Source: Candidatus Tayloriibacteriota bacterium
GTDB taxonomy: Bacteria; Patescibacteriota; Minisyncoccia; Phycocordibacterales; PALSA-1337
Reading direction: 5' to 3'
NCBI GenBank assembly: GCA_028286665.1
Contig: JAQBRD010000031.1
Span: 155-64,154, forward strand
DNA: 64,000 bases
This document shows positions 22,587 through 51,910 of the stretch, piece after piece. The translations under genes were made by a program, and so were the position numbers. Every line of letters starts with the position of its first letter. The first letter of the stretch is position 1. Under the pieces are notes generated by a model. That model saw nothing but the letters and a program-made list of their open reading frames with translations, made no database searches and was not told the DNA's origin.

Positions 22587-25121
22587 ATGGAAAAATCTCT
22601 GAAAAATAGCTCGAAAAAGGGAGCGGAAAAGGCTGAAAACCGTAAGCGCGAGAAGCTCGTGCTTCTCGACTCGCACGCGATCCTCCATCGAGCATACCAT
22701 GCATTGCCTGATTTCGTTTCTGCGAAAGGCGAGCCGACGGGCGCCATCTACGGACTCGTGAGCATGCTCATTTCGATCATTGCAGAGTTGAAGCCGGATT
22801 ATATCGTCGCATGTTACGATCTGCCCGGCCCGACATACCGTCATGAGGTGTACAAGGAGTACAAAGCGGGCCGGGCGAAGACCGACGGCGATCTCGTCAC
22901 CCAGCTCCAGAGCTCGCGCAAAGTCTTCGAAGCTTTCAATATTCCGATCTACGACAAGCCCGGCTTCGAAGCAGACGACATGCTCGGCTCGATCGTCGAG
23001 CAGATACTCGATCGCAAGGAATGCTCTGACCTCGATGTCATCATCGCATCGGGCGACATGGACACAATGCAGCTTATCTCGGATCGACGGGTGATGGTGT
23101 ATACGCTGAAGAAGGGCATCAAGGATACTGTGCTCTATGATGAAGAGGCCGTGCGAGCTCGTTTCGGTTTCGGTCCTGAGCTGCTTCCTGATTACAAAGG
23201 CCTTCGCGGCGATACGTCCGACAACATCATCGGCATCAAGGGCATCGGCGAGAAGACTGCCGGCACGCTCATCGGTACGTTCGGAACGATCGAGAATATG
23301 TACAAGGTATTGTCGACCGATGCAGGCAAGAAGAAATTCGAAGAAGCCGGCATCACGCCGCGCATCGTGAAGCTCCTCGAAGAAGGGAAGGAAGAAGCTG
23401 AGTTCAGCAAGATGCTCGCGACGATCCGCCGTGATGCGCCGATCGAGTTCGTCCGGCCAGAAAAGCATTTCTTCGACATGGTCGCTGACCCGATCGTCTT
23501 CGATGCGGTCATGAAGCTCTTCAATGAATTGAATTTCCGCACGCTCGGTCCGCGGCTCAAGAATGCGATTTTCGGAAAGGCTCCGGCTGCTGCGAAGGAG
23601 CGAGCATCTGAAAAAGATGAAGCTGAAACAGATGCGGCAGAAAGCCCGTCGAATCCAGGAAATTCGGCGCTTTTCGATATCGTCGCGCCGGAGGAGGTGA
23701 AGCGGACCGGCCTCGCGCTCTGGCTGCTTGATTCCAATCTGACGAATCCCGGCGTAGAGGAGATCACGAACTTCGCGCAGACGGAGGATTTTGCGAAGGC
23801 TTCGGCGATCATCTTCAGCGAGCTTGAGAAGCAGGGCCTGAAGAAGCTGTACGATACGATCGAGATGCCCATCCTGCCGATCATCGAACGGATGAATGCT
23901 CGCGGCGTGAAGATCGATCGCGCGCTTCTCGCGAAGCTTTCGAAGGACTATCACACGCAGCTCGACAGGCTCGAGAAGCAGATCCACAAGCATGCCGGCG
24001 TCGAATTCAACATCAATTCTCCCAAACAGCTCGGTGAGATCCTCTTCGACAAGCTCATGCTCACGGCGAAAGGCATGAAGAAGACTGCCGGCGGCGCCCG
24101 ATCGACGCGCGAATCCGAGCTCGAGAAGCTCCGCGACTCGCATCCGATCGTGTCGCTCATTTTCGAATACCGAGAATTCCAGAAGCTCCTCTCTACATAT
24201 ATAGACACGATCCCGACATTGCTCGATGAGCATGATCGGCTCCATAGCAATTTCATACAGACGGGAACGACGACCGGACGCATGGCGTCGCAGAGCCCGA
24301 ACCTGCAGAATATTCCGATCAGGACGGACCTCGGACGTGCGATCCGCGGAGCGTTCATCGCGGACAAGAAGCCTGCGGACGGGAAGGGGGCGTTCATCCT
24401 CGGCGCTTTCGACTACTCGCAGATCGAACTGCGCATCGCAGCATTCCTTTCAGGCGACGAGAAGCTCATCGGTATCTTCAAGAGCGGGCAGGATGTCCAT
24501 GCGGCAGTCGCTGCGGAAGTCTTCGGCGTTCCGATCGACAAAGTTGATCGCGAGATGCGACGTCGGGCGAAGATCATCAACTTCGGCATCCTCTACGGCA
24601 TGGGCGTGACTGCGCTCCGCGGCAATCTCGAAAGCGAAGGCGATGTGAAAGTCACCCGCGACGAGGCGCAAAAATTCTATAACGAATACTTCGCGAAATT
24701 CTCCGGACTCGCGCAGTATCTCGACAAGGTGAAAGCTGAAGCATCTCGAAAGGGCTACACTGAGACATTCTTCGGCCGACGCCGCGTATTCGAAGGCATC
24801 AATTCGAAGCTTCCATATATCAAGGCAATGGCAGAACGCATGGCTATCAATGCCCCTATTCAGGGAACGAATGCCGATGTGGTGAAGATCGCCATGAAGC
24901 GCATCGACGACTATATCGAGAAGGAAGGACTTCGCGACGATGCCTCGCTCATCCTTCAGGTCCATGACGAGCTCGTGTATGAGATCCGCGAAGCGAAGGC
25001 TGAAAAGATCGCCGCGGGCATCAAGGAGATCATGGAGACAGTCATCGATCCGAAGGATATCCACGGCATCAAGCTTATGGCGAACGGCACGCTCGGCGAT
25101 AATTGGGGCGTATTGAAATAG
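22587..25121 (+). CDS. polA: DNA polymerase I (5'-3' exonuclease + polymerase; 3'-5' exonuclease region reduced)
   Basis: The N-terminal 5' nuclease carries LVLLDSHAILHRAYHAL. Polymerase motifs are DYSQIELR (A), RRRAKIINFGILYGMG (B) and QVHDELVYE (C). There are only about 180 aa between the nuclease and polymerase domains, and no DxE Exo I motif. Confidence 0.93.
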   Translation: MEKSLKNSSKKGAEKAENRKREKLVLLDSHAILHRAYHALPDFVSAKGEPTGAIYGLVSMLISIIAELKPDYIVACYDLPGPTYRHEVYKEYKAGRAKTDGDLVTQLQSSRKVFEAFNIPIYDKPGFEADDMLGSIVEQILDRKECSDLDVIIASGDMDTMQLISDRRVMVYTLKKGIKDTVLYDEEAVRARFGFGPELLPDYKGLRGDTSDNIIGIKGIGEKTAGTLIGTFGTIENMYKVLSTDAGKKKFEEAGITPRIVKLLEEGKEEAEFSKMLATIRRDAPIEFVRPEKHFFDMVADPIVFDAVMKLFNELNFRTLGPRLKNAIFGKAPAAAKERASEKDEAETDAAESPSNPGNSALFDIVAPEEVKRTGLALWLLDSNLTNPGVEEITNFAQTEDFAKASAIIFSELEKQGLKKLYDTIEMPILPIIERMNARGVKIDRALLAKLSKDYHTQLDRLEKQIHKHAGVEFNINSPKQLGEILFDKLMLTAKGMKKTAGGARSTRESELEKLRDSHPIVSLIFEYREFQKLLSTYIDTIPTLLDEHDRLHSNFIQTGTTTGRMASQSPNLQNIPIRTDLGRAIRGAFIADKKPADGKGAFILGAFDYSQIELRIAAFLSGDEKLIGIFKSGQDVHAAVAAEVFGVPIDKVDREMRRRAKIINFGILYGMGVTALRGNLESEGDVKVTRDEAQKFYNEYFAKFSGLAQYLDKVKAEASRKGYTETFFGRRRVFEGINSKLPYIKAMAERMAINAPIQGTNADVVKIAMKRIDDYIEKEGLRDDASLILQVHDELVYEIREAKAEKIAAGIKEIMETVIDPKDIHGIKLMANGTLGDNWGVLK

Positions 25122-25124
25122 CTC

Positions 25125-25895
25125 ATGATTTATTTCCTCCACGGAACCGATACGGACAAAGCGCGGGCCAAAGCCAAGGAGCTTGTCGCTGCGATGCAAA
25201 AGAAGAAGCCGGATGCGGCGTTCTTCACCGTGAACGGGGAAGTGTGGGTTGCCGCCGGCATCGCACAAAGCGGCATGGTCATCGATGAGTACGCCGGCGG
25301 CCAAGGCCTCTTCGAGAACAAGTTCATCGTGCTCGTCGATCGCGTCGGCGAGGACAAGGAATTGCGCGAAAGCCTGGCGGAGAAGGCGGAACTCATGGCC
25401 GAGTCGGATAATATTTTTATAATCGTAGAGGGCAAGCTCGATAAGGCGACGACGACCAAGATCGAGAAGCTCGCGGAAAAGACGCAGGAATTCGAAGCTG
25501 AGAAAGCCGAGGCGGGCGCATTTTTCAAAAAAACGGACAGCTCATCCGGTTCCGGCGCAAATATCTTCGCCCTCGGGGATGCGCTCGGCCGCCGCGACAA
25601 GAAGCAGCTCTGGGTGCTCTATCGCCAATTCATCGATGAGGGGAAGGCTCCCGAAGAAATCCACGGCACGCTATTCTGGCAGGCGAAATCGATCGCGCTC
25701 GCTGCTCGCACGAAAAGCGCCGCAGAATCCGGCCTCGCGCCGTTCGTCTATTCGAAATCGAAAGCATTCGCGGAAAATTATTCAGATCTTGAATTGCGCA
25801 AGCTACTCGACGATCTCATCTCCGTCTCGCATGATTCCCGGAGAGGGAAGCATGATCTGGAGACGGCTCTTGAGATATTGCTTTTGAAAATATAG
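25125..25895 (+). CDS. DNA polymerase III delta subunit (HolA)-like
   Basis: A 256-aa protein whose N-terminus (MIYFLHGTDTDKARAKAKEL) and C-terminus (LRKLLDDLISVSHDSRRGKHDLETALEILLLKI) are HolA-like. It lies immediately downstream of polA. Confidence 0.55.
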   Translation: MIYFLHGTDTDKARAKAKELVAAMQKKKPDAAFFTVNGEVWVAAGIAQSGMVIDEYAGGQGLFENKFIVLVDRVGEDKELRESLAEKAELMAESDNIFIIVEGKLDKATTTKIEKLAEKTQEFEAEKAEAGAFFKKTDSSSGSGANIFALGDALGRRDKKQLWVLYRQFIDEGKAPEEIHGTLFWQAKSIALAARTKSAAESGLAPFVYSKSKAFAENYSDLELRKLLDDLISVSHDSRRGKHDLETALEILLLKI

Positions 25896-25907
25896 TCCGC
25901 TTTATTT

Positions 25908-27701
25908 TTATTCTGCCGCCGCATCCCTCGTCTTGATGTATTTCTGCCAAAGCATCTGAAAATCCGGCGAAGAGGCCTGCAGCTCAGCAAGCGAACCGGA
26001 GGCGATGATCCTGCCGTCCTTGAAGAAGTAGACTGTATCGAATAAGGAAAGAAGGTGGAGCCGATGTATCGATGAGATCACGGTCTTGCCTTCGAAAGCG
26101 GTGAAGATGTTCTTGTAGATCGCGAGCTCGTTGTGGAAGTCGACGCTGCTCGTCGGCTCGTCGAGGAGGATGATCTCCTTGTCGATCGATGCGAGGAGTC
26201 CGCGGGAAAGGGCGAGGCGCTGCTTCTCGCCGCCGGAGAGATTGACGCCTTTTTCGACGATGGACGAGTCGAGCTTCTTCGGAAGCCGCTTCACGATATC
26301 GGTGAATCGAGCCATGTCGGTGAAGACCTCGATGTGCTGCTCTGAATAATCGACGCCCATGGTGATGTTCTCGCGGATGGTCGTCGAGAATATCTCCGGG
26401 TCCTGCGGCACAAGCGAGATCGAGTCGCTGATGGCAGAGAAGCCGCCGCCCTCTTTCGCGCCATCGATGGCGAGATCGATCGATTTCGGATGATAGAGAT
26501 CGCGGAAGACTTTCAGGAAAGTGCTCTTGCCGCCCCCGCTTTCGCCGATGACTGCGATCTTTTCGCCTTTCGATATCCGCATGCTGATCTCATCGAGGTG
26601 CCGCATGGCTCCGTCCTCGCGATGATATGAGAATGAGAGATTGCGGATCTCGATCGACGACCATTCTTTCGGCAGCAATGCGGGCGGGACATGGACCTGC
26701 TCTGCAAACTCCTTCGAAATCTCCTCCGAATTCATGAGCGAGGTCCGCTGCCGGATGATGTCGCCGTAGAGGTAGGCGAATCGGTAGAACGTCTCGCGTA
26801 CCTGATTCACATAGCTGTAGAGGATGTATATCGTTCCGGACAGGATCATGTTTCCGGCTTTGAAATTGAAATAGACGTAGCCGCTCAATATGAGGACTAC
26901 TGAAAGCCGCCCGATGACCGATGCTGAGAACCACTTCTGCTCGTTTCGGATATTGTTCGTATTGTATTGACTGAACGGCTCTTCCATATGCGCAATTATG
27001 GAATCGAGGACGGGCGATTTGATTCGGAGCGTGATGACCGTAGTGATGTTGCTGATCGTGTCGAATATCTTCGCCGAGATCTTGTTGTCGAGGCGGTTCA
27101 CGATACGATATCCTGGAACGAGCACGCGGTCGAAGCGAATGAGGATGTAGAACGCGATGGCAGTGGCGATGATGAGGAAGGCTGTGGCGGCAGGCTCATA
27201 GAACATGATGACGACATATGCAGTTATCAGGAATATGACGGATTGGATGAGTTCGAAGGTGCGCGAAGCGAAGCTTGAAAGGGCTTCGGCGCCTTTCTCG
27301 ATCTTGTCGATCGTATCTCCTGAGTGATGATCCACATGCCATTCGATGGGGAGGTTCATGGTTCCTTCGAGCATATATGCCTTGAAGTTCTTCCGGACGA
27401 TGAATGAGGTCTTGTTCTCGAGGATGCGGCCGTATCCGTGGAAAATCCAGAAGCCGAGTTCCTGCGCGAGGAAGAGGGTGAGAAAAGCGAGGATCACATA
27501 TATATTGTCCTGCTTCACTCCTTGCTCCTGGATGATATTGAGCACCTTGCCGATGATGAGCGGCTCGACGGTGCCGATCGCGTTTGCGATGACGAAGAGG
27601 AATATGAAAAGGATGACGCTCCGGCGATTGGTCCCGGCGAATTTCCACATCTTGCGGATAAGATATATGACCGGATTGTTCTTGAAGATATGCGTAGTCA
27701 T
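25908..27701 (-). CDS. ABC exporter, fused permease-ATPase (MsbA/MdlB type)
   Basis: Six predicted TM helices are followed by GESGGGKSTFLKVF (Walker A), LSGGEKQRLALSRGL (signature motif) and ILLDEPTSSVD (Walker B). Confidence 0.9.
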   Translation of the reverse strand: MTTHIFKNNPVIYLIRKMWKFAGTNRRSVILFIFLFVIANAIGTVEPLIIGKVLNIIQEQGVKQDNIYVILAFLTLFLAQELGFWIFHGYGRILENKTSFIVRKNFKAYMLEGTMNLPIEWHVDHHSGDTIDKIEKGAEALSSFASRTFELIQSVIFLITAYVVIMFYEPAATAFLIIATAIAFYILIRFDRVLVPGYRIVNRLDNKISAKIFDTISNITTVITLRIKSPVLDSIIAHMEEPFSQYNTNNIRNEQKWFSASVIGRLSVVLILSGYVYFNFKAGNMILSGTIYILYSYVNQVRETFYRFAYLYGDIIRQRTSLMNSEEISKEFAEQVHVPPALLPKEWSSIEIRNLSFSYHREDGAMRHLDEISMRISKGEKIAVIGESGGGKSTFLKVFRDLYHPKSIDLAIDGAKEGGGFSAISDSISLVPQDPEIFSTTIRENITMGVDYSEQHIEVFTDMARFTDIVKRLPKKLDSSIVEKGVNLSGGEKQRLALSRGLLASIDKEIILLDEPTSSVDFHNELAIYKNIFTAFEGKTVISSIHRLHLLSLFDTVYFFKDGRIIASGSLAELQASSPDFQMLWQKYIKTRDAAAE

Positions 27702-27755
27702 AGACTACTTGAAGCCGAAAGGGATCGGGAAAGATAACGATATGGTGAGGATGCA

Positions 27756-27779
27756 GGTGCGCCAAATGGGAATGGAACC
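27756..27779. repeat. Imperfect direct repeat of the tRNA-Lys 3' end (att-like island boundary)
   Basis: ggtgcgccaaatgggaatggaacc matches tgtgcgcccagttggaatcgaacc (28588-28611) at about 19 of 24 positions. The low-GC segment starts immediately after it. Confidence 0.55.
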
Positions 27780-27853
27780 TTTTAACCAAGCCTTGTAAGT
27801 CTTTATTGAAACCTTATGTAAGTTAGATCTTATGTAGGGTCACACTTTAGGAA

Positions 27854-28543
27854 TCAAACTACAATCTTTACTTTATCCCAAGATTGTTCTGCTCCGTCAT
27901 ACAAACCTTTTATTGTACCCGCCAAACGAAACTGCGCCTCTTGGTTTAAATCATGTGCATTAACACCGATTCGCTCGCAGAAAGTAAAAACAAGAGGTGC
28001 TAACATTAGTTTTTGTTTCCAAGCATTTTCAGACCAAAGTCGATGATTAACTCTCACAATACGGTCGTCATTTTCAATTCCTAATTCTCTGGCGGTCTCA
28101 ATATTTTTCTTCGTCAAATCTTCACGCATATTGTAATTGAAACTCAAATTTATTTTTCCAAGATTAGTGAGCCAGTGAAGTGTTACACCATCAACCGCAT
28201 TGTTGTAAGATTCCATACTAGCCCAAATACCGTCTCTCCCTTTTTCGTGAAGGTATGATTTTGTGAAGTCACTTTGAGTAACTACAATTTTTCCGCTAAT
28301 GAATTTATGGGTCCAAGCAAGTGCAAATAGCTCAAAACGAATGACCTTTATTTCGTCATTTATTTTTTGAGAATCGATTTTTGCAAATTCCGGGTATATT
28401 TCGACGATATTTTTCTTAACAACATCAGAAAATACGCTACTAACATCAATCTCACCGACTACTGAGTTTAGAATTTGAGTATCGTAAAAATCACGACAAA
28501 AATCTTCTAACTTCTTTTTCTGTTTTATTGAGAAAAATGACAC
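27854..28543 (-). CDS. Hypothetical protein on low-GC island; possible HEPN-type abortive-infection-like protein (Rx5H motif)
   Basis: The ORF is at about 33% GC against about 52% for its neighbours. The first in-frame ATG (28621) lies inside tRNA-Lys, so I place a putative GTG start at 28543. DDRIVRVNHRLWSE near the C-terminus matches the HEPN R-x4-6-H consensus. Confidence 0.4.
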   Translation of the reverse strand: MSFFSIKQKKKLEDFCRDFYDTQILNSVVGEIDVSSVFSDVVKKNIVEIYPEFAKIDSQKINDEIKVIRFELFALAWTHKFISGKIVVTQSDFTKSYLHEKGRDGIWASMESYNNAVDGVTLHWLTNLGKINLSFNYNMREDLTKKNIETARELGIENDDRIVRVNHRLWSENAWKQKLMLAPLVFTFCERIGVNAHDLNQEAQFRLAGTIKGLYDGAEQSWDKVKIVV

Positions 28544-28589
28544 TGTATTTATTATAAACCTTATAAGGCCCTCGCATCGGTCTTGGTTG

Positions 28590-28662
28590 TGCGCCCAGTT
28601 GGAATCGAACCAACGACCCACTCCTTAAAAGGGAGATGCTCTACCGACTGAGCTATGGGCGC
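28590..28662 (-). tRNA. tRNA-Lys (anticodon TTT)
   Basis: The reverse complement is gcgcccatagctcagtcggtagagcatctcccttttaaggag...ggttcgattccaactgggcgca. This gives a cloverleaf with acceptor GCGCCCA/TGGGCGC, anticodon loop CTTTTAA and T-loop TTCGATT. Confidence 0.85.
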
Positions 28663-28725
28663 ATGTCTGAAGATACTACCATAAAATACGGCTCTGGCAA
28701 CAGCTTTCAGTGCATCATGCTTCTG

Positions 28726-29100
28726 TTAGAGCGGCAGATCGAATGCGAGGAAGCCGGCGCCGCTGAAGAGGATCGAGATCGCGATGACGAAGAGGATGAA
28801 GTAATAGTTCACGCCGTCGGTGAAGAGGGCTTTCGAAGTCGCCTTGTTCACGAGCTTCACTCCGAGGAGGATCACTGCGACGAGCGCCGCTGCTTGCGTG
28901 AAGAGGCCGATGATGAGGAGCACGCCGCTTACGAGGTCGACGATGCCGAGGACGAGCGTCTGAGTTTCAGCTTTTCCTTCAGCGGTTTTTTTCTGCACGT
29001 TCTTCAAACCCCAGAGCGCGAGCACTGCGCCGAGAACGAGTCGGAGGAGAAGGGGAGCGATGAGGCCGTATGTGAAGAATGCGGGAAAGATTGATGGCAT
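28726..29100 (-). CDS. DoxX-family membrane protein
   Basis: A 124-aa protein with four predicted TM helices and LRLVLGAVLALWGLKN, in the DoxX pattern. Confidence 0.6.
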   Translation of the reverse strand: MPSIFPAFFTYGLIAPLLLRLVLGAVLALWGLKNVQKKTAEGKAETQTLVLGIVDLVSGVLLIIGLFTQAAALVAVILLGVKLVNKATSKALFTDGVNYYFILFVIAISILFSGAGFLAFDLPL

Positions 29101-29127
29101 GGTTTTTTATGATATCTAATATATAGT

Positions 29128-29634
29128 ATGCCTATGATACCACAACTCCCGGCCGGTTCAGGCGCTTTCATCCTCATGCACGATGTCCGGAGCGTTCATA
29201 ATGTCGGATCTATATTCCGCACTGCGGACGGATTCGGCGTGGAAAAGATCTATATTTCAGGCCATACGCCGTCTCCGATCGACCGTTTCGGCAGGAAGCG
29301 CCCTGATATGGCGAAGGTCGCGCTCGGAGCTGAGGATTCGGTCGCATGGGAGATGGTCGAGGATCCGCTGGTGCTCGTTAAGAAGCTGAAGAAGTCCGGC
29401 GTGCGCATCGTCGCGCTCGAGCAGGATGAGAGATCTGTCGATCTGAAAGAGATTCCGTCGATCAGCATGGCTCGCCAGCCCACGTTGCTCATTCTTGGCA
29501 GGGAGGTGGAAGGGATCGGAAAGGAATTTCTCGATATCTCTGATGTCATCGCTGAGATCCCGATGGTCGGCAAGAAGGAATCATTCAATGTCTCGGTCTC
29601 TGCAGGAGTTGCGATGTATCAGCTTTTCGGCTGA
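29128..29634 (+). CDS. SpoU/TrmH-family RNA 2'-O-methyltransferase
   Basis: The protein has HNVGSIFRTADGFG, LILGREVEGI and IPMVGKKESFNVSVSAGVAMYQL. Confidence 0.8.
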   Translation: MPMIPQLPAGSGAFILMHDVRSVHNVGSIFRTADGFGVEKIYISGHTPSPIDRFGRKRPDMAKVALGAEDSVAWEMVEDPLVLVKKLKKSGVRIVALEQDERSVDLKEIPSISMARQPTLLILGREVEGIGKEFLDISDVIAEIPMVGKKESFNVSVSAGVAMYQLFG

Positions 29635-29656
29635 GATAATTGTTGAAAGTTTCATA

Positions 29657-30457
29657 TCATATTTTCTTTGCCCGAAAGACGACGCATGTCGGCACCATGC
29701 TGCTTGCTGTGGCAGAATAGATCGGCGAATACACGTCGAGCGGTTCCGTATCCTTGTCGGGCTTCGGCTCCCAGAATCCGTCGACGGAGAATCCTGCTTC
29801 GGTGAGCATTCTGAACCAGTCGCTTGGGCGGAGCTGGTGCGTTTCTATAAGCTGTCCGCTGCCTTTCCAATTTTCACGAAAAAGCGGCATCGGTTCGTGA
29901 TAGCTTTTGCGTACGACAAGCTTACCCTCTTCAGTTTCTATGATTCGGCTGAGGTAATGATCCCAGGAGAATATGAAATATCCTCCGGGCCGTAATTTCT
30001 TATGGATCTCACCAAACAGCTTTTCGGGATATTCCGACCATCCGATGCTGTAGACCGCGATGACGCAGTCAAAAAGGCCATATGGAAGCGCTTCGTCCAT
30101 CGCCTGCTGTATCAGCGTGAAGCGCTTAGGGTATCCGCTGCTATTTTTCGAAGCAGCAGCGATTCTCATTTCAGCGATTTTCTTCTGTGCTGAGCTGAAA
30201 TCGATTCCGGTCACATGAGCGGCACCGTGTTTCAGAAGATATGCGATAGAATCTCCAGAGCCGAAGCCTATCTCGAGAAACTTTCCCCCTTTGATCTCGG
30301 GAATGATCGCGACATCTTTCATTTCGCCATTCGTACCCCACGAAGGAAGGGAAGTTCCTCCTGCGTATTGTTTCGCGACGAAGTCCCAGGCTTGCTGATG
30401 ACTCTTCAGGGTAGCTCCTTGCGGGCAGGGGTCGCTCTGGGCGCGTAATTTATTCAT
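29657..30457 (-). CDS. Class I SAM-dependent methyltransferase
   Basis: Motif I reads FLEIGFGSGDS, the sequence includes VTGIDFS, and motif II reads FDCVIAVYS. Confidence 0.7.
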   Translation of the reverse strand: MNKLRAQSDPCPQGATLKSHQQAWDFVAKQYAGGTSLPSWGTNGEMKDVAIIPEIKGGKFLEIGFGSGDSIAYLLKHGAAHVTGIDFSSAQKKIAEMRIAAASKNSSGYPKRFTLIQQAMDEALPYGLFDCVIAVYSIGWSEYPEKLFGEIHKKLRPGGYFIFSWDHYLSRIIETEEGKLVVRKSYHEPMPLFRENWKGSGQLIETHQLRPSDWFRMLTEAGFSVDGFWEPKPDKDTEPLDVYSPIYSATASSMVPTCVVFRAKKI

Positions 30458-30563
30458 GTCGTACGTTATATCCTGAAAGTAGAAATAAGTCTCAAATATA
30501 GACTTTATTTGAGTATTAATCGAATATGGCCATAATATATAAGGTTTATTTAATAAAAATAGA

Positions 30564-30580
30564 CGTCATTATTTATGACG
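30564..30580. promoter_or_regulatory. Palindrome CGTCAT-TATTT-ATGACG upstream of TrmB-like paralog C (candidate operator)
   Basis: A perfect 6-5-6 inverted repeat lies about 14 bp before the start codon. A second palindrome, AAGTCT-CAAATAT-AGACTT, is at 30487-30505. Confidence 0.35.
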
Positions 30581-30593
30581 GTTTATTGCATAT

Positions 30594-31388
30594 GTGAGCA
30601 AAGGGTGGTATAAAAACGTCATGGAAAAAGAATTACTTGGGCATCTGATCGAGCTCGGACTTACGGAAAAAGAAGCCCGGCTCTATGTCTGGCTTGTGGA
30701 GCGCATCGAGACTACCGGCTATGAGGCGAGCATCGCGCTCAAGATCCCTCGAGGCACCGCGTACACCTTGCTCGAAGGTCTTGTTCGGAAAGAAATCGTC
30801 CGAGCAGGAACGCAGAACAAGAAACGCGTATACACTCCTGAATCGTTTTCAGTGTGGAAGAAAAGTCTTCAGGAAAAGATGAATATTGCTTCCTCGATGC
30901 TTCCGCTTCTCGAGAGCATGGTCTCAGTCAAAGGTCATAGCATCGATGTTCGTCTTTATAAGGGAATGTCTGGGGTGCAGAAGGCCTGGGATGAAGTCAT
31001 CGAGCATTTCGAAAAAAATCGCGTCGACACTTGCTTTGCAGTAAGTCATGGATCTCAGATCTACGCTGCGATGCCGAGGTATTTCAAGCGATGGATCGAG
31101 CGTCGGGTGGCGAACAAGACCGAGGCATATCTGATTTACCCGCTTGAAGACAAGAATGCGGTAGAGAACGGCTCCATTAGGGAACCGCTCGCTCAGTATA
31201 AATTCGCGCAGGGCGAGGCGCTCGCTTTCAGCGGAGACGTCACATGCGGAGGAAAGATCGCCGCTATCTTCTCATTCGACAATAAGCAGGAGCCGCACGC
31301 AGTGATCATCGAATCCGAAGACATTTCGAAGATCTTCACGCAATGGTTCAGAACCTTGTGGCACGTTCTACCGGGAAAGAATTTCTGA
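30594..31388 (+). CDS. TrmB-like HTH transcriptional regulator, paralog C
   Basis: The HTH reads LYVWLVERIETTGYEASIALKIPRGTAYTLLEGLV, and the C-terminal domain is shared (AVIIESEDISKIFTQWFRTLW). Confidence 0.7.
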   Translation: MSKGWYKNVMEKELLGHLIELGLTEKEARLYVWLVERIETTGYEASIALKIPRGTAYTLLEGLVRKEIVRAGTQNKKRVYTPESFSVWKKSLQEKMNIASSMLPLLESMVSVKGHSIDVRLYKGMSGVQKAWDEVIEHFEKNRVDTCFAVSHGSQIYAAMPRYFKRWIERRVANKTEAYLIYPLEDKNAVENGSIREPLAQYKFAQGEALAFSGDVTCGGKIAAIFSFDNKQEPHAVIIESEDISKIFTQWFRTLWHVLPGKNF

Positions 31389-48098: not shown

Positions 48099-48527
48099 CT
48101 ATTGAGATGTGGGATATTTTTCAAACTTCGGCACTGCCGGATTCAGGCGATCCCATGGCTGCGCATCGGATACCCATACTTCCATCTGCTGATTGAAGCC
48201 GCTCGGATCATCTAAGCTTGAGGTAAAGATCGCCACGATGCCCGGTGCTGAATCGGGTTTGGATAGGATAGGGGAACCGCAATCAGAGCAGAAGCCTCGA
48301 TGGTTCTTTCCACCTGCCTCGCTCTCTGTCGCGTAGAAACTGAGCTCACCTTGCGTGAGTTTGAAGGTTTCTTTCGGAACGACCGTGTAAGTAGAAAATG
48401 GTCCTCCGCTCGAGTGCTGGCAGTCTCGACAATGGCAGTTGAGCATCGTGACGGGAGCCGCTGCTGATTCGTAGCGGATCTTGCCGCAGGCGCACCCGCC
48501 GGTGAGTTGTGGGTTTATGTCGGTCAT
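48099..48527 (-). CDS. GFA-family (CENP-V/glutathione-dependent formaldehyde-activating-like) zinc protein
   Basis: GGCACGKIRYE...MLNCHCRDCQHSSGGPFS...GFCSDCGSP matches the Gfa cysteine pattern. Confidence 0.7.
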   Translation of the reverse strand: MTDINPQLTGGCACGKIRYESAAAPVTMLNCHCRDCQHSSGGPFSTYTVVPKETFKLTQGELSFYATESEAGGKNHRGFCSDCGSPILSKPDSAPGIVAIFTSSLDDPSGFNQQMEVWVSDAQPWDRLNPAVPKFEKYPTSQ

Positions 48528-48615
48528 ATCTACATTTTATCACTTTTGAGTCGCTTGAGTAAGGCACCTATCAAAGTCATGGTACAATTTTTGTATTATC
48601 AATAGTAACTCATCT

Positions 48616-48906
48616 ATGTTTAAAATAATTTTCCTGGTCGCAATTGTCATCTGTGTGGCGTTCATGCTTAAGAAAAAATCGAAGCTTTCGGAAGGGCAGA
48701 CATCATCAGAACCGCTCCTCGGGAATGAAAAGCTGATAATCTGGATAATATGCCTGCTGAATCCTATCTGGGGAGGAGCGATCTTTTACTACGGATGGAA
48801 AAATAAGCTTCCGGTAAAGGCAAAATCAGCCAATCAGATATCGCTCTGGGCTTTCTTCATTGAATTGGTCTTAGCTGTGGTGGCATTTGCGCTGCTTTCC
48901 ATTTAA
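48616..48906 (+). CDS. Small hypothetical membrane protein
   Basis: A 96-aa ORF with three hydrophobic helices in a lower-GC segment. Confidence 0.4.
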   Translation: MFKIIFLVAIVICVAFMLKKKSKLSEGQTSSEPLLGNEKLIIWIICLLNPIWGGAIFYYGWKNKLPVKAKSANQISLWAFFIELVLAVVAFALLSI

Positions 48907-48911
48907 TATCC

Positions 48912-49649
48912 ATGATGATTTCATTCAATGGCTTCCAGGCATTCTTGCTGTTTCTTGGAACAGTAATCCCTCTCAGTTGCTTATTGTATTTCATGATAGC
49001 TTTGCTATTTGAAATACCAGAATGGAACAGAAGCCGAAAGCTGTCTCTGCTCGCAAAGAAATACGATCTCACTTTCCTGAGGTCGAAAAGAGGGTGGCGA
49101 AATGGCTGGTTGAGTTTGCAGAATGGTCAGAGCAACTTTATTTCTGGAAAGATAGGTCCTTTCGTTGTGGATTTTCACGACTATCTTCTTGTGGAAGGGA
49201 ATCTCGGCCTCGGGTTCAAACCTTCGATTGCTGAAGTTTCTAATAAATGGAATCTGTCAGGCACCGGCGGAACTGCCTTTACTCGCAAGGTATCTATGCT
49301 GAATAGCAAATTCTACCGCAAGCTCCCGCTCAAGGTTCTGACAGAGGTGTTCGAGAAGATTTCTGCCCAGGCTTCAGACAAGGAGGTGCAAGAAATGCTG
49401 TCGGATCTCGATTTTACCAAACATATCATGAGAAATTGGTCCAAAGCCGCCTTCATCTCTGGCTTCGTGGCCATATTTTCCCTCTTCGTCGCGTCACTGG
49501 CCTCACCGGATTTTCCAGATTATTCCATAATAGCAATAATCGCCTTCAATGCTTTTTTGAATATCCCTCTGTTGTTATGGACATCTAAAAAATACGGGAA
49601 ACAATTTCTTCCGGCAGATATCAATCAGTACCCGCAGATGGAGGTATAA
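48912..49649 (+). CDS. Hypothetical membrane protein (245 aa)
   Basis: There are N-terminal and C-terminal TM helices with a central soluble region in between. No family was identified. Confidence 0.4.
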   Translation: MMISFNGFQAFLLFLGTVIPLSCLLYFMIALLFEIPEWNRSRKLSLLAKKYDLTFLRSKRGWRNGWLSLQNGQSNFISGKIGPFVVDFHDYLLVEGNLGLGFKPSIAEVSNKWNLSGTGGTAFTRKVSMLNSKFYRKLPLKVLTEVFEKISAQASDKEVQEMLSDLDFTKHIMRNWSKAAFISGFVAIFSLFVASLASPDFPDYSIIAIIAFNAFLNIPLLLWTSKKYGKQFLPADINQYPQMEV

Positions 49650-49650
49650 C

Positions 49651-50397
49651 TTATTCCTTCGGAAGCGTATCCCAAATATAGAGAAACATATTTTTGAACA
49701 TGTTTGCGAAAACGACTGAGTCTATCGTTGCCGCATACATTTGATGGTCTTTTATCGCGAACAGCGTCGATTTGCTTCCGCTGATATATATCGAGCTCTC
49801 AATGGGGTATGAGCCGGGCATGACTTTAGTTTCACGCAATCCATTTTTTTCATAGCCGAGTGTATTGTCGCCCTTGTTTAGAACAGGACGAATTATTCTT
49901 ATTGAAATGCCGTGCTTTTCTCTTTCCTGAATCCAGCTATCGCTAATCTTTGGAAAAATGTCAGTAAAATCAGGCCTAATGAAAGAATATATCGTGTTGG
50001 TTTTCTGCTCGATAGCATTTTCAAGTACTCCGTTCATGGCTATCTTCACACCTTCTTTGCCCGTATAGAGCTTTGCGTAGGGAAGCACCTCGTTCTGTTC
50101 TGAGTATGTCTTCAATTCAGGAATCAATTCTTCAAGAATTGTCTTCCTCTCGTTGTACTTCTTCAGAAGCAGATTGGGACTTTCTGGAAAGAAATATGTG
50201 ATCGTATTTTTCTTCCATGAAGATATGTAGCCTGATTTCTCCAGAGCCTTGAGAGTGTGATACACGCTAGTCTTCGGAAGCGAAGTATCCGCAGCTATTT
50301 TGAATGCTGTAGCGTCTTTGAGCTTGAATAGTGACAGATAGACTCGGGCCTCTTTCTTTGAAAAGCCCATTTCCTCAAGATTTTTGGTTATATTCAT
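49651..50397 (-). CDS. TrmB-like HTH transcriptional regulator, paralog E
   Basis: I take the start at MNITKNLEEMGFSKKEARVYLSLFKLKDATAFKIAADTSLPKTSVYHTLKALE, and the C-terminal domain is shared. The gene is divergent from SBP copy 4. Confidence 0.7.
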   Translation of the reverse strand: MNITKNLEEMGFSKKEARVYLSLFKLKDATAFKIAADTSLPKTSVYHTLKALEKSGYISSWKKNTITYFFPESPNLLLKKYNERKTILEELIPELKTYSEQNEVLPYAKLYTGKEGVKIAMNGVLENAIEQKTNTIYSFIRPDFTDIFPKISDSWIQEREKHGISIRIIRPVLNKGDNTLGYEKNGLRETKVMPGSYPIESSIYISGSKSTLFAIKDHQMYAATIDSVVFANMFKNMFLYIWDTLPKE

Positions 50398-50410
50398 GAC
50401 AACTATAGTA

Positions 50411-50429
50411 TAGTCCATATTTTGGACTA
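50411..50429. promoter_or_regulatory. Palindrome TAGTCCA-TATTT-TGGACTA immediately upstream of TrmB-like paralog E (candidate operator)
   Basis: A perfect 7-5-7 inverted repeat with the same TATTT spacer as the palindrome upstream of paralog C. Confidence 0.4.
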
Positions 50430-50527
50430 AATCAACTGTTTAATATATGGCTAATAATATAGACGTAAGTATATTACATATTAATAAAGTCCAAATACGA
50501 AGTATTTATTGACAAAATATAATACTA

Positions 50528-51679
50528 TTGTTCTATAAGAATAAAGAACATATGAAAAAATACATCATTTCTGGCCTAGTTATATTGGTTCTTTCGGGGA
50601 TTTTGTTTGGAATTACGAATCAGCGTGGTTCATCTTCAGCAGTTACTATTGGCTTTCTCGGATCTTTGACCGGTGTAGATCCTAATTACGGAGAGGCGAT
50701 GAAAGGCGGAGTTTCGATTGCGGTGGATGAAATCAATGCTGAAGGTGGAATTGCCGGCAAGAAATTAGAGGTAATTTATGAAGATGGCAAATGCATCGAT
50801 ACCAAGTCAGCGGTGAGCGCTGCCCAGAAACTAATCACAATTGATAAGGTCAATATTATCCTTGGCGGGGGTTGCAGCAACGAGGCTTTGTCTATCGTAC
50901 ATCTCCTCGAAGAATCAAACACACTTCTGCTTTCATCTGGGGCGAGCAGTCCCGCGCTATCAGGCTTGAGCAAGAATGTCTTCCGAAATGCCCCAAGCGA
51001 TGCGCAGACCGGAGAAAAGATCGCGGCATATATGTTTTCAAAGCATTTTCGAAAGGTCGCAATCGTGTCTGATCAAACTGATTATTCAAAAGGCTTCAGG
51101 GATTCGTTTTTGAAATCCTTCGCAAATCTTGGAGGGTTTGTTGTCGAAGATATATCCGTTTCGCCAAAAGGTTCGGATTACCGGACCGATCTGGTTAAGC
51201 TAAAAGGAAAGGAAATCGATGCCATATTCATCAATCCCAACGTACCCGTCAGTGCTGGCATTATCGCAAGACAGGTGAGGGAGCTCGGGATGAATCAGCA
51301 GCTGTTTTTCGCCTATCACGCAACTCCTGATCTGGTCAGAACCGGTGGGGATGCCGTCAACGGTGCGGTAATAATCAATGTCCCGACTCCAGAGAATGAT
51401 GCTGCAAAAAGAATCCTCAAGCGATTCGAAGAAAAATACGGCAAGAGCACAGTCTATCCATACAACACGCTTGCCGCATACGATGCTGCAATGCTCATAG
51501 CTCAAGGGATAAAGAAAGCTGGCAGCAAAACGGAAGATGTTCGGTCGTATTTGCACGAATTGAAAAATTTCACCGGAGCGCTTGGCTCATATCACTTCGA
51601 TGAGAGAGGGGATATCCAAGACCTTCAGTATCGATTTGAAAGGGTTGAGGGCGGAAAGTTTGTCGATATTGTGGAATAA
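50528..51679 (+). CDS. LivK-type substrate-binding protein, copy 4
   Basis: After an N-terminal anchor comes VTIGFLGSLTGVDPNYGEAMKGGVSIAVDEINAEGGIAGKKLEVIYEDGKCIDTKSA. Confidence 0.8.
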   Translation: MFYKNKEHMKKYIISGLVILVLSGILFGITNQRGSSSAVTIGFLGSLTGVDPNYGEAMKGGVSIAVDEINAEGGIAGKKLEVIYEDGKCIDTKSAVSAAQKLITIDKVNIILGGGCSNEALSIVHLLEESNTLLLSSGASSPALSGLSKNVFRNAPSDAQTGEKIAAYMFSKHFRKVAIVSDQTDYSKGFRDSFLKSFANLGGFVVEDISVSPKGSDYRTDLVKLKGKEIDAIFINPNVPVSAGIIARQVRELGMNQQLFFAYHATPDLVRTGGDAVNGAVIINVPTPENDAAKRILKRFEEKYGKSTVYPYNTLAAYDAAMLIAQGIKKAGSKTEDVRSYLHELKNFTGALGSYHFDERGDIQDLQYRFERVEGGKFVDIVE

Positions 51680-51685
51680 AGATTC

Positions 51686-51760
51686 GGTCGCAGGTATTTT
51701 TCTTGTGAAAAATCCTGCGACCCCGCCTCGCGCACCTTCGTGCGCTCCGGCTTTCAAATC
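51686..51760. repeat. Structured intergenic repeat, copy R2 (about 75 nt)
   Basis: GGTCGCAGG-[TATTTTTC-TTGT-GAAAAAT]-CCTGCGACC-CCGCCTCGCGCACCTTCGTGCGCTCCGGC-TTTCAAATCT. The outer 9-bp stem, inner hairpin and second hairpin (GCGCAC-CTTC-GTGCGC) are conserved with R1 through compensatory changes. Confidence 0.5.
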
Positions 51761-51815: not shown

Positions 51816-51823
51816 ATTTATTG

Positions 51824-51910
51824 CGGATGGGGTGAGATTTGAACTCACGGTCCCCTTACGAGGACGACGGTTTTCAAGACCGTTGCCTTAAACCACTCAG
51901 CCACCCATCC
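51824..51910 (-). tRNA. tRNA-Ser (anticodon TGA), type II with long variable arm
   Basis: The reverse complement is ggatgggtggctgagtggtttaaggcaacggtcttgaaaaccgtcgtcctcgtaaggggaccgtgagttcaaatctcaccccatccg. The anticodon loop is CTTGAAA and the T-loop is TTCAAAT. Confidence 0.8.

Follow-up and report, generated by a model that had tools for sequence, protein, structure and literature searches.

The window analysed here is a stretch of 64,000 nucleotides (nt) from a Candidatus Tayloriibacteriota bacterium (GenBank assembly GCA_028286665.1, contig JAQBRD010000031.1). The subject of this report is a small islet with a low content of guanine and cytosine (GC), which adjoins the 3' end of a lysine tRNA gene, tRNA-Lys(UUU), and the single gene that the islet carries. 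The tRNA gene (anticodon ttt) was called by ARAGORN and matches the Rfam tRNA model with 73 bits; it lies on the minus strand and thus has the low-GC segment at its 3' side. Read in the direction of the tRNA, the locus continues through a short spacer, a leader, an intact open reading frame (ORF) and a trailer to a 3'-half copy of the same tRNA in a decayed state, before host DNA is reached again (Table 1). Only the tRNA-Lys was matched in an Rfam scan of the islet, and the further repeats found within it are short and chance-like.

Table 1. Features of the tRNA-Lys locus, listed in the direction of the minus strand, and the host genes around it (GC3, GC at third codon positions; att, attachment site).
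Feature	Position in the window	Strand	Remarks
Promoter-like site (TTGCCA, 16-nt spacer, TG-TAGTAT)	28673..28700	-	Upstream of tRNA-Lys; consensus scan
tRNA-Lys(UUU), intact	28589..28662	-	ARAGORN, Rfam; 3' end at 28589 is the proximal, attL-like boundary
GC-rich (61%) 23-nt spacer after the tRNA 3' end	28566..28588	-	Outside the compositional island; host trailer or att arm
AT-rich leader of the ORF (14% GC)	28544..28565	-	Read directly from the sequence
Cargo gene, 229 codons, GTG start	27854..28543	-	Intact; all family-conserved residues kept
AT-rich (31% GC) trailer, stop codon to tRNA fragment	27800..27853	-	Island DNA
Decayed 3'-half copy of tRNA-Lys, anticodon loop to 3' end	27757..27799	-	attR-like distal boundary
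Host-like spacer, 55 nt, 47% GC	27702-27756		Between tRNA fragment and ABC transporter gene
ABC transporter gene, native, GC3 0.74	25908..27701	-	Pfam ABC_membrane and ABC_tran; marks the return to host DNA
Six neighbour genes: DNA polymerase III delta, ABC transporter, ORF of 124 amino acids, SpoU, methyltransferase, TrmB	25125-31388		About 2.7 kb on each side

The islet is of foreign origin. That a low-GC segment lies beside the tRNA-Lys 3' end, as the first-pass annotation of this DNA had described, is borne out by the ARAGORN call and by a two-change-point likelihood fit, which places the island at 27780-28566 with a GC content of 0.344 inside compared to 0.53 outside (log-likelihood gain 37). 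In windows of 200 nt the GC content is 33-40% from about 27700 to 28600 and 50-59% in both flanks, and the islet is the lowest-GC 790-nt window in the entire 64 kb, approximately 4 standard deviations under the mean. The low-GC DNA sets in 23 nt past the tRNA 3' end. Codon usage points in the same direction: the GC3 of the islet ORF is 0.296 compared to 0.57-0.75 in five native genes, and equals that of homologues in low-GC genomes (0.22-0.34). One might still regard the ORF as a native gene of unusual composition that was not acquired horizontally, as no empty-site relative was found to set against this idea. Given the difference in GC3, an identity of 87% to proteins of distant low-GC lineages, a patchy occurrence across phyla and in one archaeon, and the position of the segment between a tRNA and a tRNA fragment, such a native origin is highly improbable.

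The distal border of the islet carries a repeat of the tRNA. It was first noted as an imperfect match between 27756-27779 and 28588-28611; our realignment gives the same 19 identities in 24 positions, and the repeat extends in register and ungapped to 30 identities in 43 positions (local alignment, score 17). It covers the tRNA positions 32-74, corresponding to the window from 27799 down to 27757, in direct orientation, starting with the first base of the anticodon loop and ending with the 3' end of the tRNA; upstream of tRNA position 32 no similarity to tRNA-Lys was found. When the 887 nt that follow the tRNA were block-shuffled 3000 times with their composition preserved, no shuffle came up to the score of 17 (maximum 15.5), and equal or better scores within the window occur only at genuine tRNA genes. 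If the fragment is compared to all 8 tRNAs of the window, tRNA-Lys fits best (17 versus 11 at most). An origin from tRNA-Val (loop CTTACAA, Val-like anticodon) was considered and rejected, the score being 9 compared to 17 for tRNA-Lys. The fragment is decayed: it retains 3 of 5 T-stem pairs and cannot fold as a T-arm, its T-loop contains an abnormal C, and one acceptor position mismatches the 5' strand of the tRNA. The attL/attR-like footprint that had been claimed for this locus is supported by these results, with a repeat that is longer (43 nt) than first noted and begins exactly at the anticodon loop.

Genes for tRNAs are hot-spots of integration and decayed remnants of elements are common there; repeats of 43-44 nt which run from the anticodon loop to the tRNA 3' end are typical. 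Williams is said to have distinguished in 2002 sublocation classes of tRNA integration at the anticodon loop and the T-loop, and the work of Reiter from 1989 and the Islander database reportedly cover islands and elements integrated in tRNA genes. For PYG1, which resides in a tRNA-Gln gene, a 44-bp tRNA repeat has been described (PMC9897764), the tRNA copy being complete at one end and partial at the other. The islet resembles tRNA-integrated islands in its two ends, of which one is an intact tRNA and the other a partial copy of the tRNA 3' part in direct orientation, as well as in the repeat of about 43 nt from the anticodon loop, the foreign composition and the accessory type of its cargo. 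It differs from them in three aspects: typical islands measure 5-200 kb, whereas the islet has one gene in about 0.8 kb; they carry an integrase and excisionase, whereas the islet has neither and is immobile on its own; and their repeats are about 100% identical, compared to 70% in the islet. As there is no integrase inside, the terms remnant and islet suit it best; it is not an active element.

We consider it probable, though by some way short of certain, that the islet is the stripped-down remnant of an element integrated in tRNA-Lys, with one cargo gene left which is probably read through from the tRNA promoter. In this course of events an integrase would have inserted a mobile element into the tRNA-Lys(UUU) gene of this genome, which belongs to the Patescibacteria (candidate phyla radiation, CPR). 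Such an insertion leaves the layout that is seen here, in which the intact tRNA is followed by the island, by the 3'-half tRNA copy, displaced and decayed, and by host DNA, with about 0.8 kb of foreign low-GC DNA spanning 27780/27800 to 28566/28588. The integrase would have been lost later together with the remainder of the element, or the cargo replaced, so that one intact gene was left. This gene would be a recent, unameliorated arrival, and any helix-turn-helix (HTH) partner it may have had would have been lost.

Several observations weigh against this reading. There is no integrase or other mobility gene among the six neighbours (an earlier claim to this effect holds for 25125-31388), and the islet ORF has no recombinase domain; the integration mechanism has therefore to be read from the scar. 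No close relative without the insert was found, the nearest relatives having no tRNA-Lys beside the ABC transporter gene. The GTG start of the cargo gene together with the absence of a Shine-Dalgarno sequence and of an HTH partner may mean that the gene is silent. No member of its protein family was found in IMG/VR, among the PLSDB plasmids or among the INPHARED phages, and a role in defence is an association from about ten genomic contexts, several of which show no defence genes (L016 and L031). Finally, the divergence of the tRNA fragment amounts to 30%, and within the 24 nt at its 3' side no fewer than 4 changes have to be ascribed to decay, although the ORF is ameliorated little if at all; the scar may thus have been in place before the present cargo came.

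The last point leads to an alternative with two events. Here the half-tRNA would be an older integration scar or an old partial duplication of the tRNA, and the ORF would have come later by another route, either with a newer element whose distal end was deleted or by homology-facilitated illegitimate recombination anchored on the tRNA. Besides the divergence of the fragment and the damage to its T-stem, T-loop and acceptor, this would account for an ORF whose GC3 shows no measurable shift to the host value of 0.7, for the compositional boundary at 27780, which falls within the fragment and not at its end, and for the GC-rich, host-like nature of the 23 nt after the tRNA. Yet the fragment is found exactly at the distal edge of the island and in the correct orientation and register. 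The tension between the two ages also eases if the donor had a GC3 as low as about 0.22, as in the homologue locus L007, since some amelioration is then allowed and both ages can be reconciled. One must further keep in mind that the numbers are small, with 13 differences in 43 nt. We regard two separate events as rather unlikely and prefer the remnant of a single integrated element.

The relatives of the locus were sought with the flanking ABC transporter. Scans of GTDB and of JGI metagenomes yielded relatives of 57-64% identity, none of them with a tRNA-Lys nearby, and a large protein database yielded one match of 100% and one relative of 67% with different neighbours, so that apart from the identical contig the relatives, all Patescibacteria, do not exceed 67%; the order of genes in these nearest genomes is also different. 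This identical contig (L030, Logan SRR13312974) was assembled separately and agrees over 4042 bp with positions 24580-28621 of the window at 100% identity. It carries the islet too and breaks inside the tRNA-Lys gene. The 124-amino-acid ORF among the neighbours has no Pfam match.

The cargo gene is intact. The ORF at 27854-28543 had been reported to lack an ATG start, which is true; its GTG at 28543 aligns with Met1 of homologues of 229 amino acids. It contains no stop and no frameshift, and every residue conserved in the family is retained. Pairwise dN/dS values are 0.08-0.14, with about 0.13 on the window's own branch, and indicate that the family is under strong purifying selection. The frame stays open upward into the tRNA (27854-28621, 255 codons), which is why a gene of 255 amino acids is called on the identical public contig. 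This call on L030 is an annotation artefact to watch for.

With regard to expression, a scan found no terminator-like site between tRNA-Lys, the islet ORF and the ABC transporter gene. Read-through is therefore plausible, and the predicted tRNA-Lys promoter probably drives transcription into the islet. The leader of the ORF contains two further elements. On the minus strand a TATAAT-like hexamer (28556-28551) ends 7 nt ahead of the start codon; a perfect palindrome of 10 bp, CCTTATAAGG, is located at 28559-28568, mostly inside the AT-rich leader. Both elements sit 7-25 nt upstream of the start codon; by their sequence they may represent a putative operator or −10 element, or may be related to a leaderless start. 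A Shine-Dalgarno sequence was found neither before the islet ORF nor before its homologues.

The islet could also hold a dead passenger, i.e. an intact but unexpressed recent import that is bound to decay and has no function for the host. The gene starts with GTG where all homologues have ATG, no promoter of its own was called, a Shine-Dalgarno sequence is missing, and the HTH partner and the operon context are lost. In addition, the missing amelioration indicates a recent arrival, so that the intact frame is no proof of selection in this host. Against this stand an AT-rich frame of 690 nt without a stop in which every conserved residue is kept, the dN/dS value on the window's branch, the equal lack of Shine-Dalgarno sequences in homologues, the plausible read-through from the tRNA promoter, and the occurrence of the same sequence at 100% identity on the separately assembled contig. 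A functionless islet is in our view unlikely.

The protein encoded by the cargo gene belongs to a family of 144 clusters at 90% identity in a word-indexed search, and of 314 clusters at 50% identity in an exhaustive phmmer search. Nearly all homologues have 225-233 amino acids, and every member is labelled "hypothetical". They occur in Nealsonbacteria, Staskawiczbacteria, Saccharimonadales, Omnitrophica, Bacteroidetes, Thermodesulfobacteriota, Cloacimonetes and in one Methanophagales archaeon. The closest relatives, with 82-87% identity in protein and 82-84% in DNA, are found on low-GC contigs of the Nealsonbacteria type. DNA homology of the window ORF to seven contexts (64-84% identity) covers only 27863-28542; between contexts it extends from the first codons to close to the stop codon and never includes the flanks. 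The non-coding flanks of the islet, including the trailer at 27800-27853, have no DNA homology to any fetched locus. As the homology stops at the borders of the ORF, the family gene can be regarded as a discrete module.

Known families do not account for this protein. It has no match in Pfam, PADLOC, NCBIfam or PHROGs, and a Pfam scan of 47 relatives matched none of them. A profile search with a diverse alignment (A2) in 5.8 billion proteins gave 158 matches, all of them "hypothetical" and none with a Pfam domain. Among 236 aligned members the conserved residues are Y20, E71, A76, H79 (89%), Q90, T94, L98, W107, Y113, R164 (86%), R168 (94%), W175 and Y215; H79 is lost in distant members, which argues weakly against a conserved catalytic histidine. 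AlphaFold2, based on an alignment of 48 sequences, produced a confident all-alpha model (pLDDT 91.9, pTM 0.89) with approximately eleven helices and, at the N- and C-terminus, short strands that are predicted to pair with each other. Foldseek found nothing at E ≤ 0.001 in the PDB or among the BFVD viral models (TM-scores of 0.27 at most), and the sequence profile of the family compared to the PDB gave coiled-coil noise only. Some longer relatives are fusions with TPR, an Ada Zn-binding domain or a Zn-ribbon, which are too sporadic to interpret. We also note a giant protein of 7649 amino acids (P0152) that matches the family residues 107-138 in 32 separate stretches; this is probably a repetitive helical protein which is functionally unrelated to the family.

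The first-pass annotation had taken the islet ORF for a HEPN protein, an abortive-infection RNase similar to Abi_2 or AbiD/F, with RIVRVNH as its Rx4-6H motif, and the islet for a degenerate or satellite-type defence islet. The string RIVRVNH is indeed present (residues 161-167), the protein is all-alpha according to AlphaFold2, and some homologues are located near true HEPN genes, namely AbiU2 (L022) and a HEPN-MNT pair (L020). The family does not conserve the motif itself: of the 236 aligned members 9% retain R161 and 19% retain H167, with Asn in 65% at position 167, and the conserved R164 and R168 nearby do not make an Rx4-6H motif. The window protein does not match Abi_2 (PF07751) at E ≤ 10, nor any of the 5027 PADLOC-DB 2.0 defence models at this threshold, and it is without a match in NCBIfam and PHROGs. 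No Abi_2 or HEPN match in Pfam occurs among 48 family members at E ≤ 1. If the family profile is aligned by hhalign to two HEPN proteins of neighbouring loci, the probabilities are 0.1-0.3%.

A HEPN-like fold, on which the earlier interpretation had been made to depend, was not found either, since Foldseek detected no similarity to solved HEPN domains in the PDB. HEPN proteins of abortive infection (Abi_2/AbiD/AbiF, AbiU2, RnlA/LsoA) are like the family small, all-alpha and encoded in defence islands, and share with the window protein one Rx5H-like string; they differ from the family in that the motif is unconserved there and both a match to their hidden Markov models and a structural similarity to solved HEPN domains are missing. 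As far as these searches reach, the islet protein is not a HEPN/Abi RNase, and to this reading we assign next to no probability. What is left of the earlier description is the reduced islet with its att-like scar, without its HEPN/Abi basis.

To obtain hints on the role of the family, ten distinct contexts of homologues were read, the window included. In L001-4 the order is HTH (65 amino acids)-229-206-154, a Schlafen-like ATPase and DpnI being encoded in the vicinity. In L005/6 the order is HTH-182-229-DpnII-like nuclease, adjoining a large serine recombinase and situated between inverted copies of a tRNA-Ala. L007 is an element with FtsK, primase and resolvase, and in L032-34 the HTH and the 229-amino-acid protein are followed by a histidine phosphatase (His_Phos_1), an HD protein and further genes, with a tyrosine integrase 5 kb away. 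The homologue in L022 is found among Mrr, TIR, PDC-S31, AbiU2, RadC, DUF932 and Gam, that in L020 beside the HEPN-MNT pair, and that in L018 1.1 kb downstream of a tRNA-Lys(CUU) in a lower-GC tract of 3.3 kb in a Saccharimonadales genome. The remaining contexts have ordinary neighbours, a glycosyltransferase cluster in L016 and housekeeping genes in L031. On the basis of these contexts the family appears as accessory cargo of integrative elements and of variable or defence islands.

The HTH protein that precedes a family member has 65-68 amino acids and matches the PADLOC models Control_protein and capH; the only further PADLOC matches among the neighbours of homologues are PDC-S31 and an Aga restriction endonuclease. 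The HTH partners are mutually only 40-50% identical, compared to 82-87% for their 229-amino-acid proteins. There is no conserved partner gene across the neighbourhoods and no neighbour is paralogous to the family; an HTH gene is absent from the window islet and from L016, L018, L020, L022 and L031. A toxin in need of a neutralizing antitoxin is made less likely by these solitary copies. A type II toxin-antitoxin pair with an XRE antitoxin was rejected, as the obligate adjacent antitoxin is absent in the window and in five loci.

Two of the loci deserve a description of their own. In L005 (1657-7206 of JGI 3300032156 Ga0315295_10000010) there are nested inverted repeats, 352 and 284 nt at 100% and 124 nt at 91% identity, whose outer pair includes a whole tRNA-Ala(tgc) gene. 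They bracket 4.85 kb with the large serine recombinase, the HTH, the 182-amino-acid gene, the homologue of 229 amino acids and the DpnII-like nuclease. The segment represents an invertible element, a serine-integrase element or else an artefact of metagenome assembly. In L018 (4846-8250 of ENA ERZ27257061 k141_1798319) the family member and the tRNA-Lys(ctt) are on the same strand, and the GC content of the tract is 0.41-0.48 compared to 0.52-0.62. The tract also holds unannotated ORFs of 95 and 430 amino acids, and no tRNA-fragment repeat was found. The family gene has a GC3 of 0.54 compared to a GC of 0.51 for the locus, the latter being overall GC and not the GC3 of neighbours; this copy may be an older resident. 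Convincing direct repeats bounding the homologue tracts were found neither in L018 nor in L032.

Several loci of the family resemble cargo operons led by a controller-type or XRE HTH gene (Control_protein, CapH), in that the HTH directly precedes the family member and variable enzymes follow it (a DpnII-like restriction endonuclease, His_Phos_1 and HD, unannotated proteins). They differ from such operons in that the window copy and at least 4 other contexts have no HTH, and the family has no conserved methyltransferase or other defined partner. The family moves between phyla as a one-gene module, often right behind an XRE or controller-type HTH gene. Judged from the neighbourhood, its role is likely an accessory, conflict-related function, be it phage defence or competition between elements, that would be exerted by binding and not by nuclease catalysis. 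The islet protein itself may possibly be linked to defence, as its homologues are often found in defence or mobile-element neighbourhoods. A more far-reaching idea, to which we give only a small chance, is that the family represents an undescribed, self-contained module against phages or mobile elements, with a new all-alpha fold, that forms the core of HTH-led operons with swappable effectors and also acts solo.

Two further regions of the window were noted. A second lower-GC tract (48500-51700, GC 0.32-0.48 compared to about 0.53) follows closely on the 3' end of a tRNA-Ser(tga) gene (51823-51910, minus strand) and may be another tRNA-linked island. Its ORFs comprise 245 amino acids (48912-49649, hydrophobic-looking), 383 amino acids (50528-51679, similar in appearance to a solute-binding protein) and 255 amino acids (49651-50418), the last of which, on visual comparison, looks similar to the TrmB-family regulator at 30594-31388. 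The intergenic region 30400-30600 between the divergent genes of the methyltransferase (29657-30457, minus strand) and of this TrmB-like regulator (plus strand) is AT-rich (36% GC) and probably is a shared promoter region.

The islet itself is an ordinary leftover of a mobile element, of the textbook kind. It illustrates that in the small genomes of CPR bacteria even a remnant reduced to one gene can be recognized by a half-tRNA scar of 43 nt, and a remnant with such a scar could be useful for the calibration of island finders that require an integrase. The cargo family is well populated (about 314 clusters at 50% identity), strongly constrained, often transferred and unannotated, and has no structural neighbour; as it recurs in neighbourhoods of defence genes and mobile elements, it is a reasonable candidate for screening. 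If the family were indeed a conflict module, it would be a one-gene cassette that spreads across bacterial phyla and into archaea, and the window would present its minimal form, a single gene behind a tRNA promoter.

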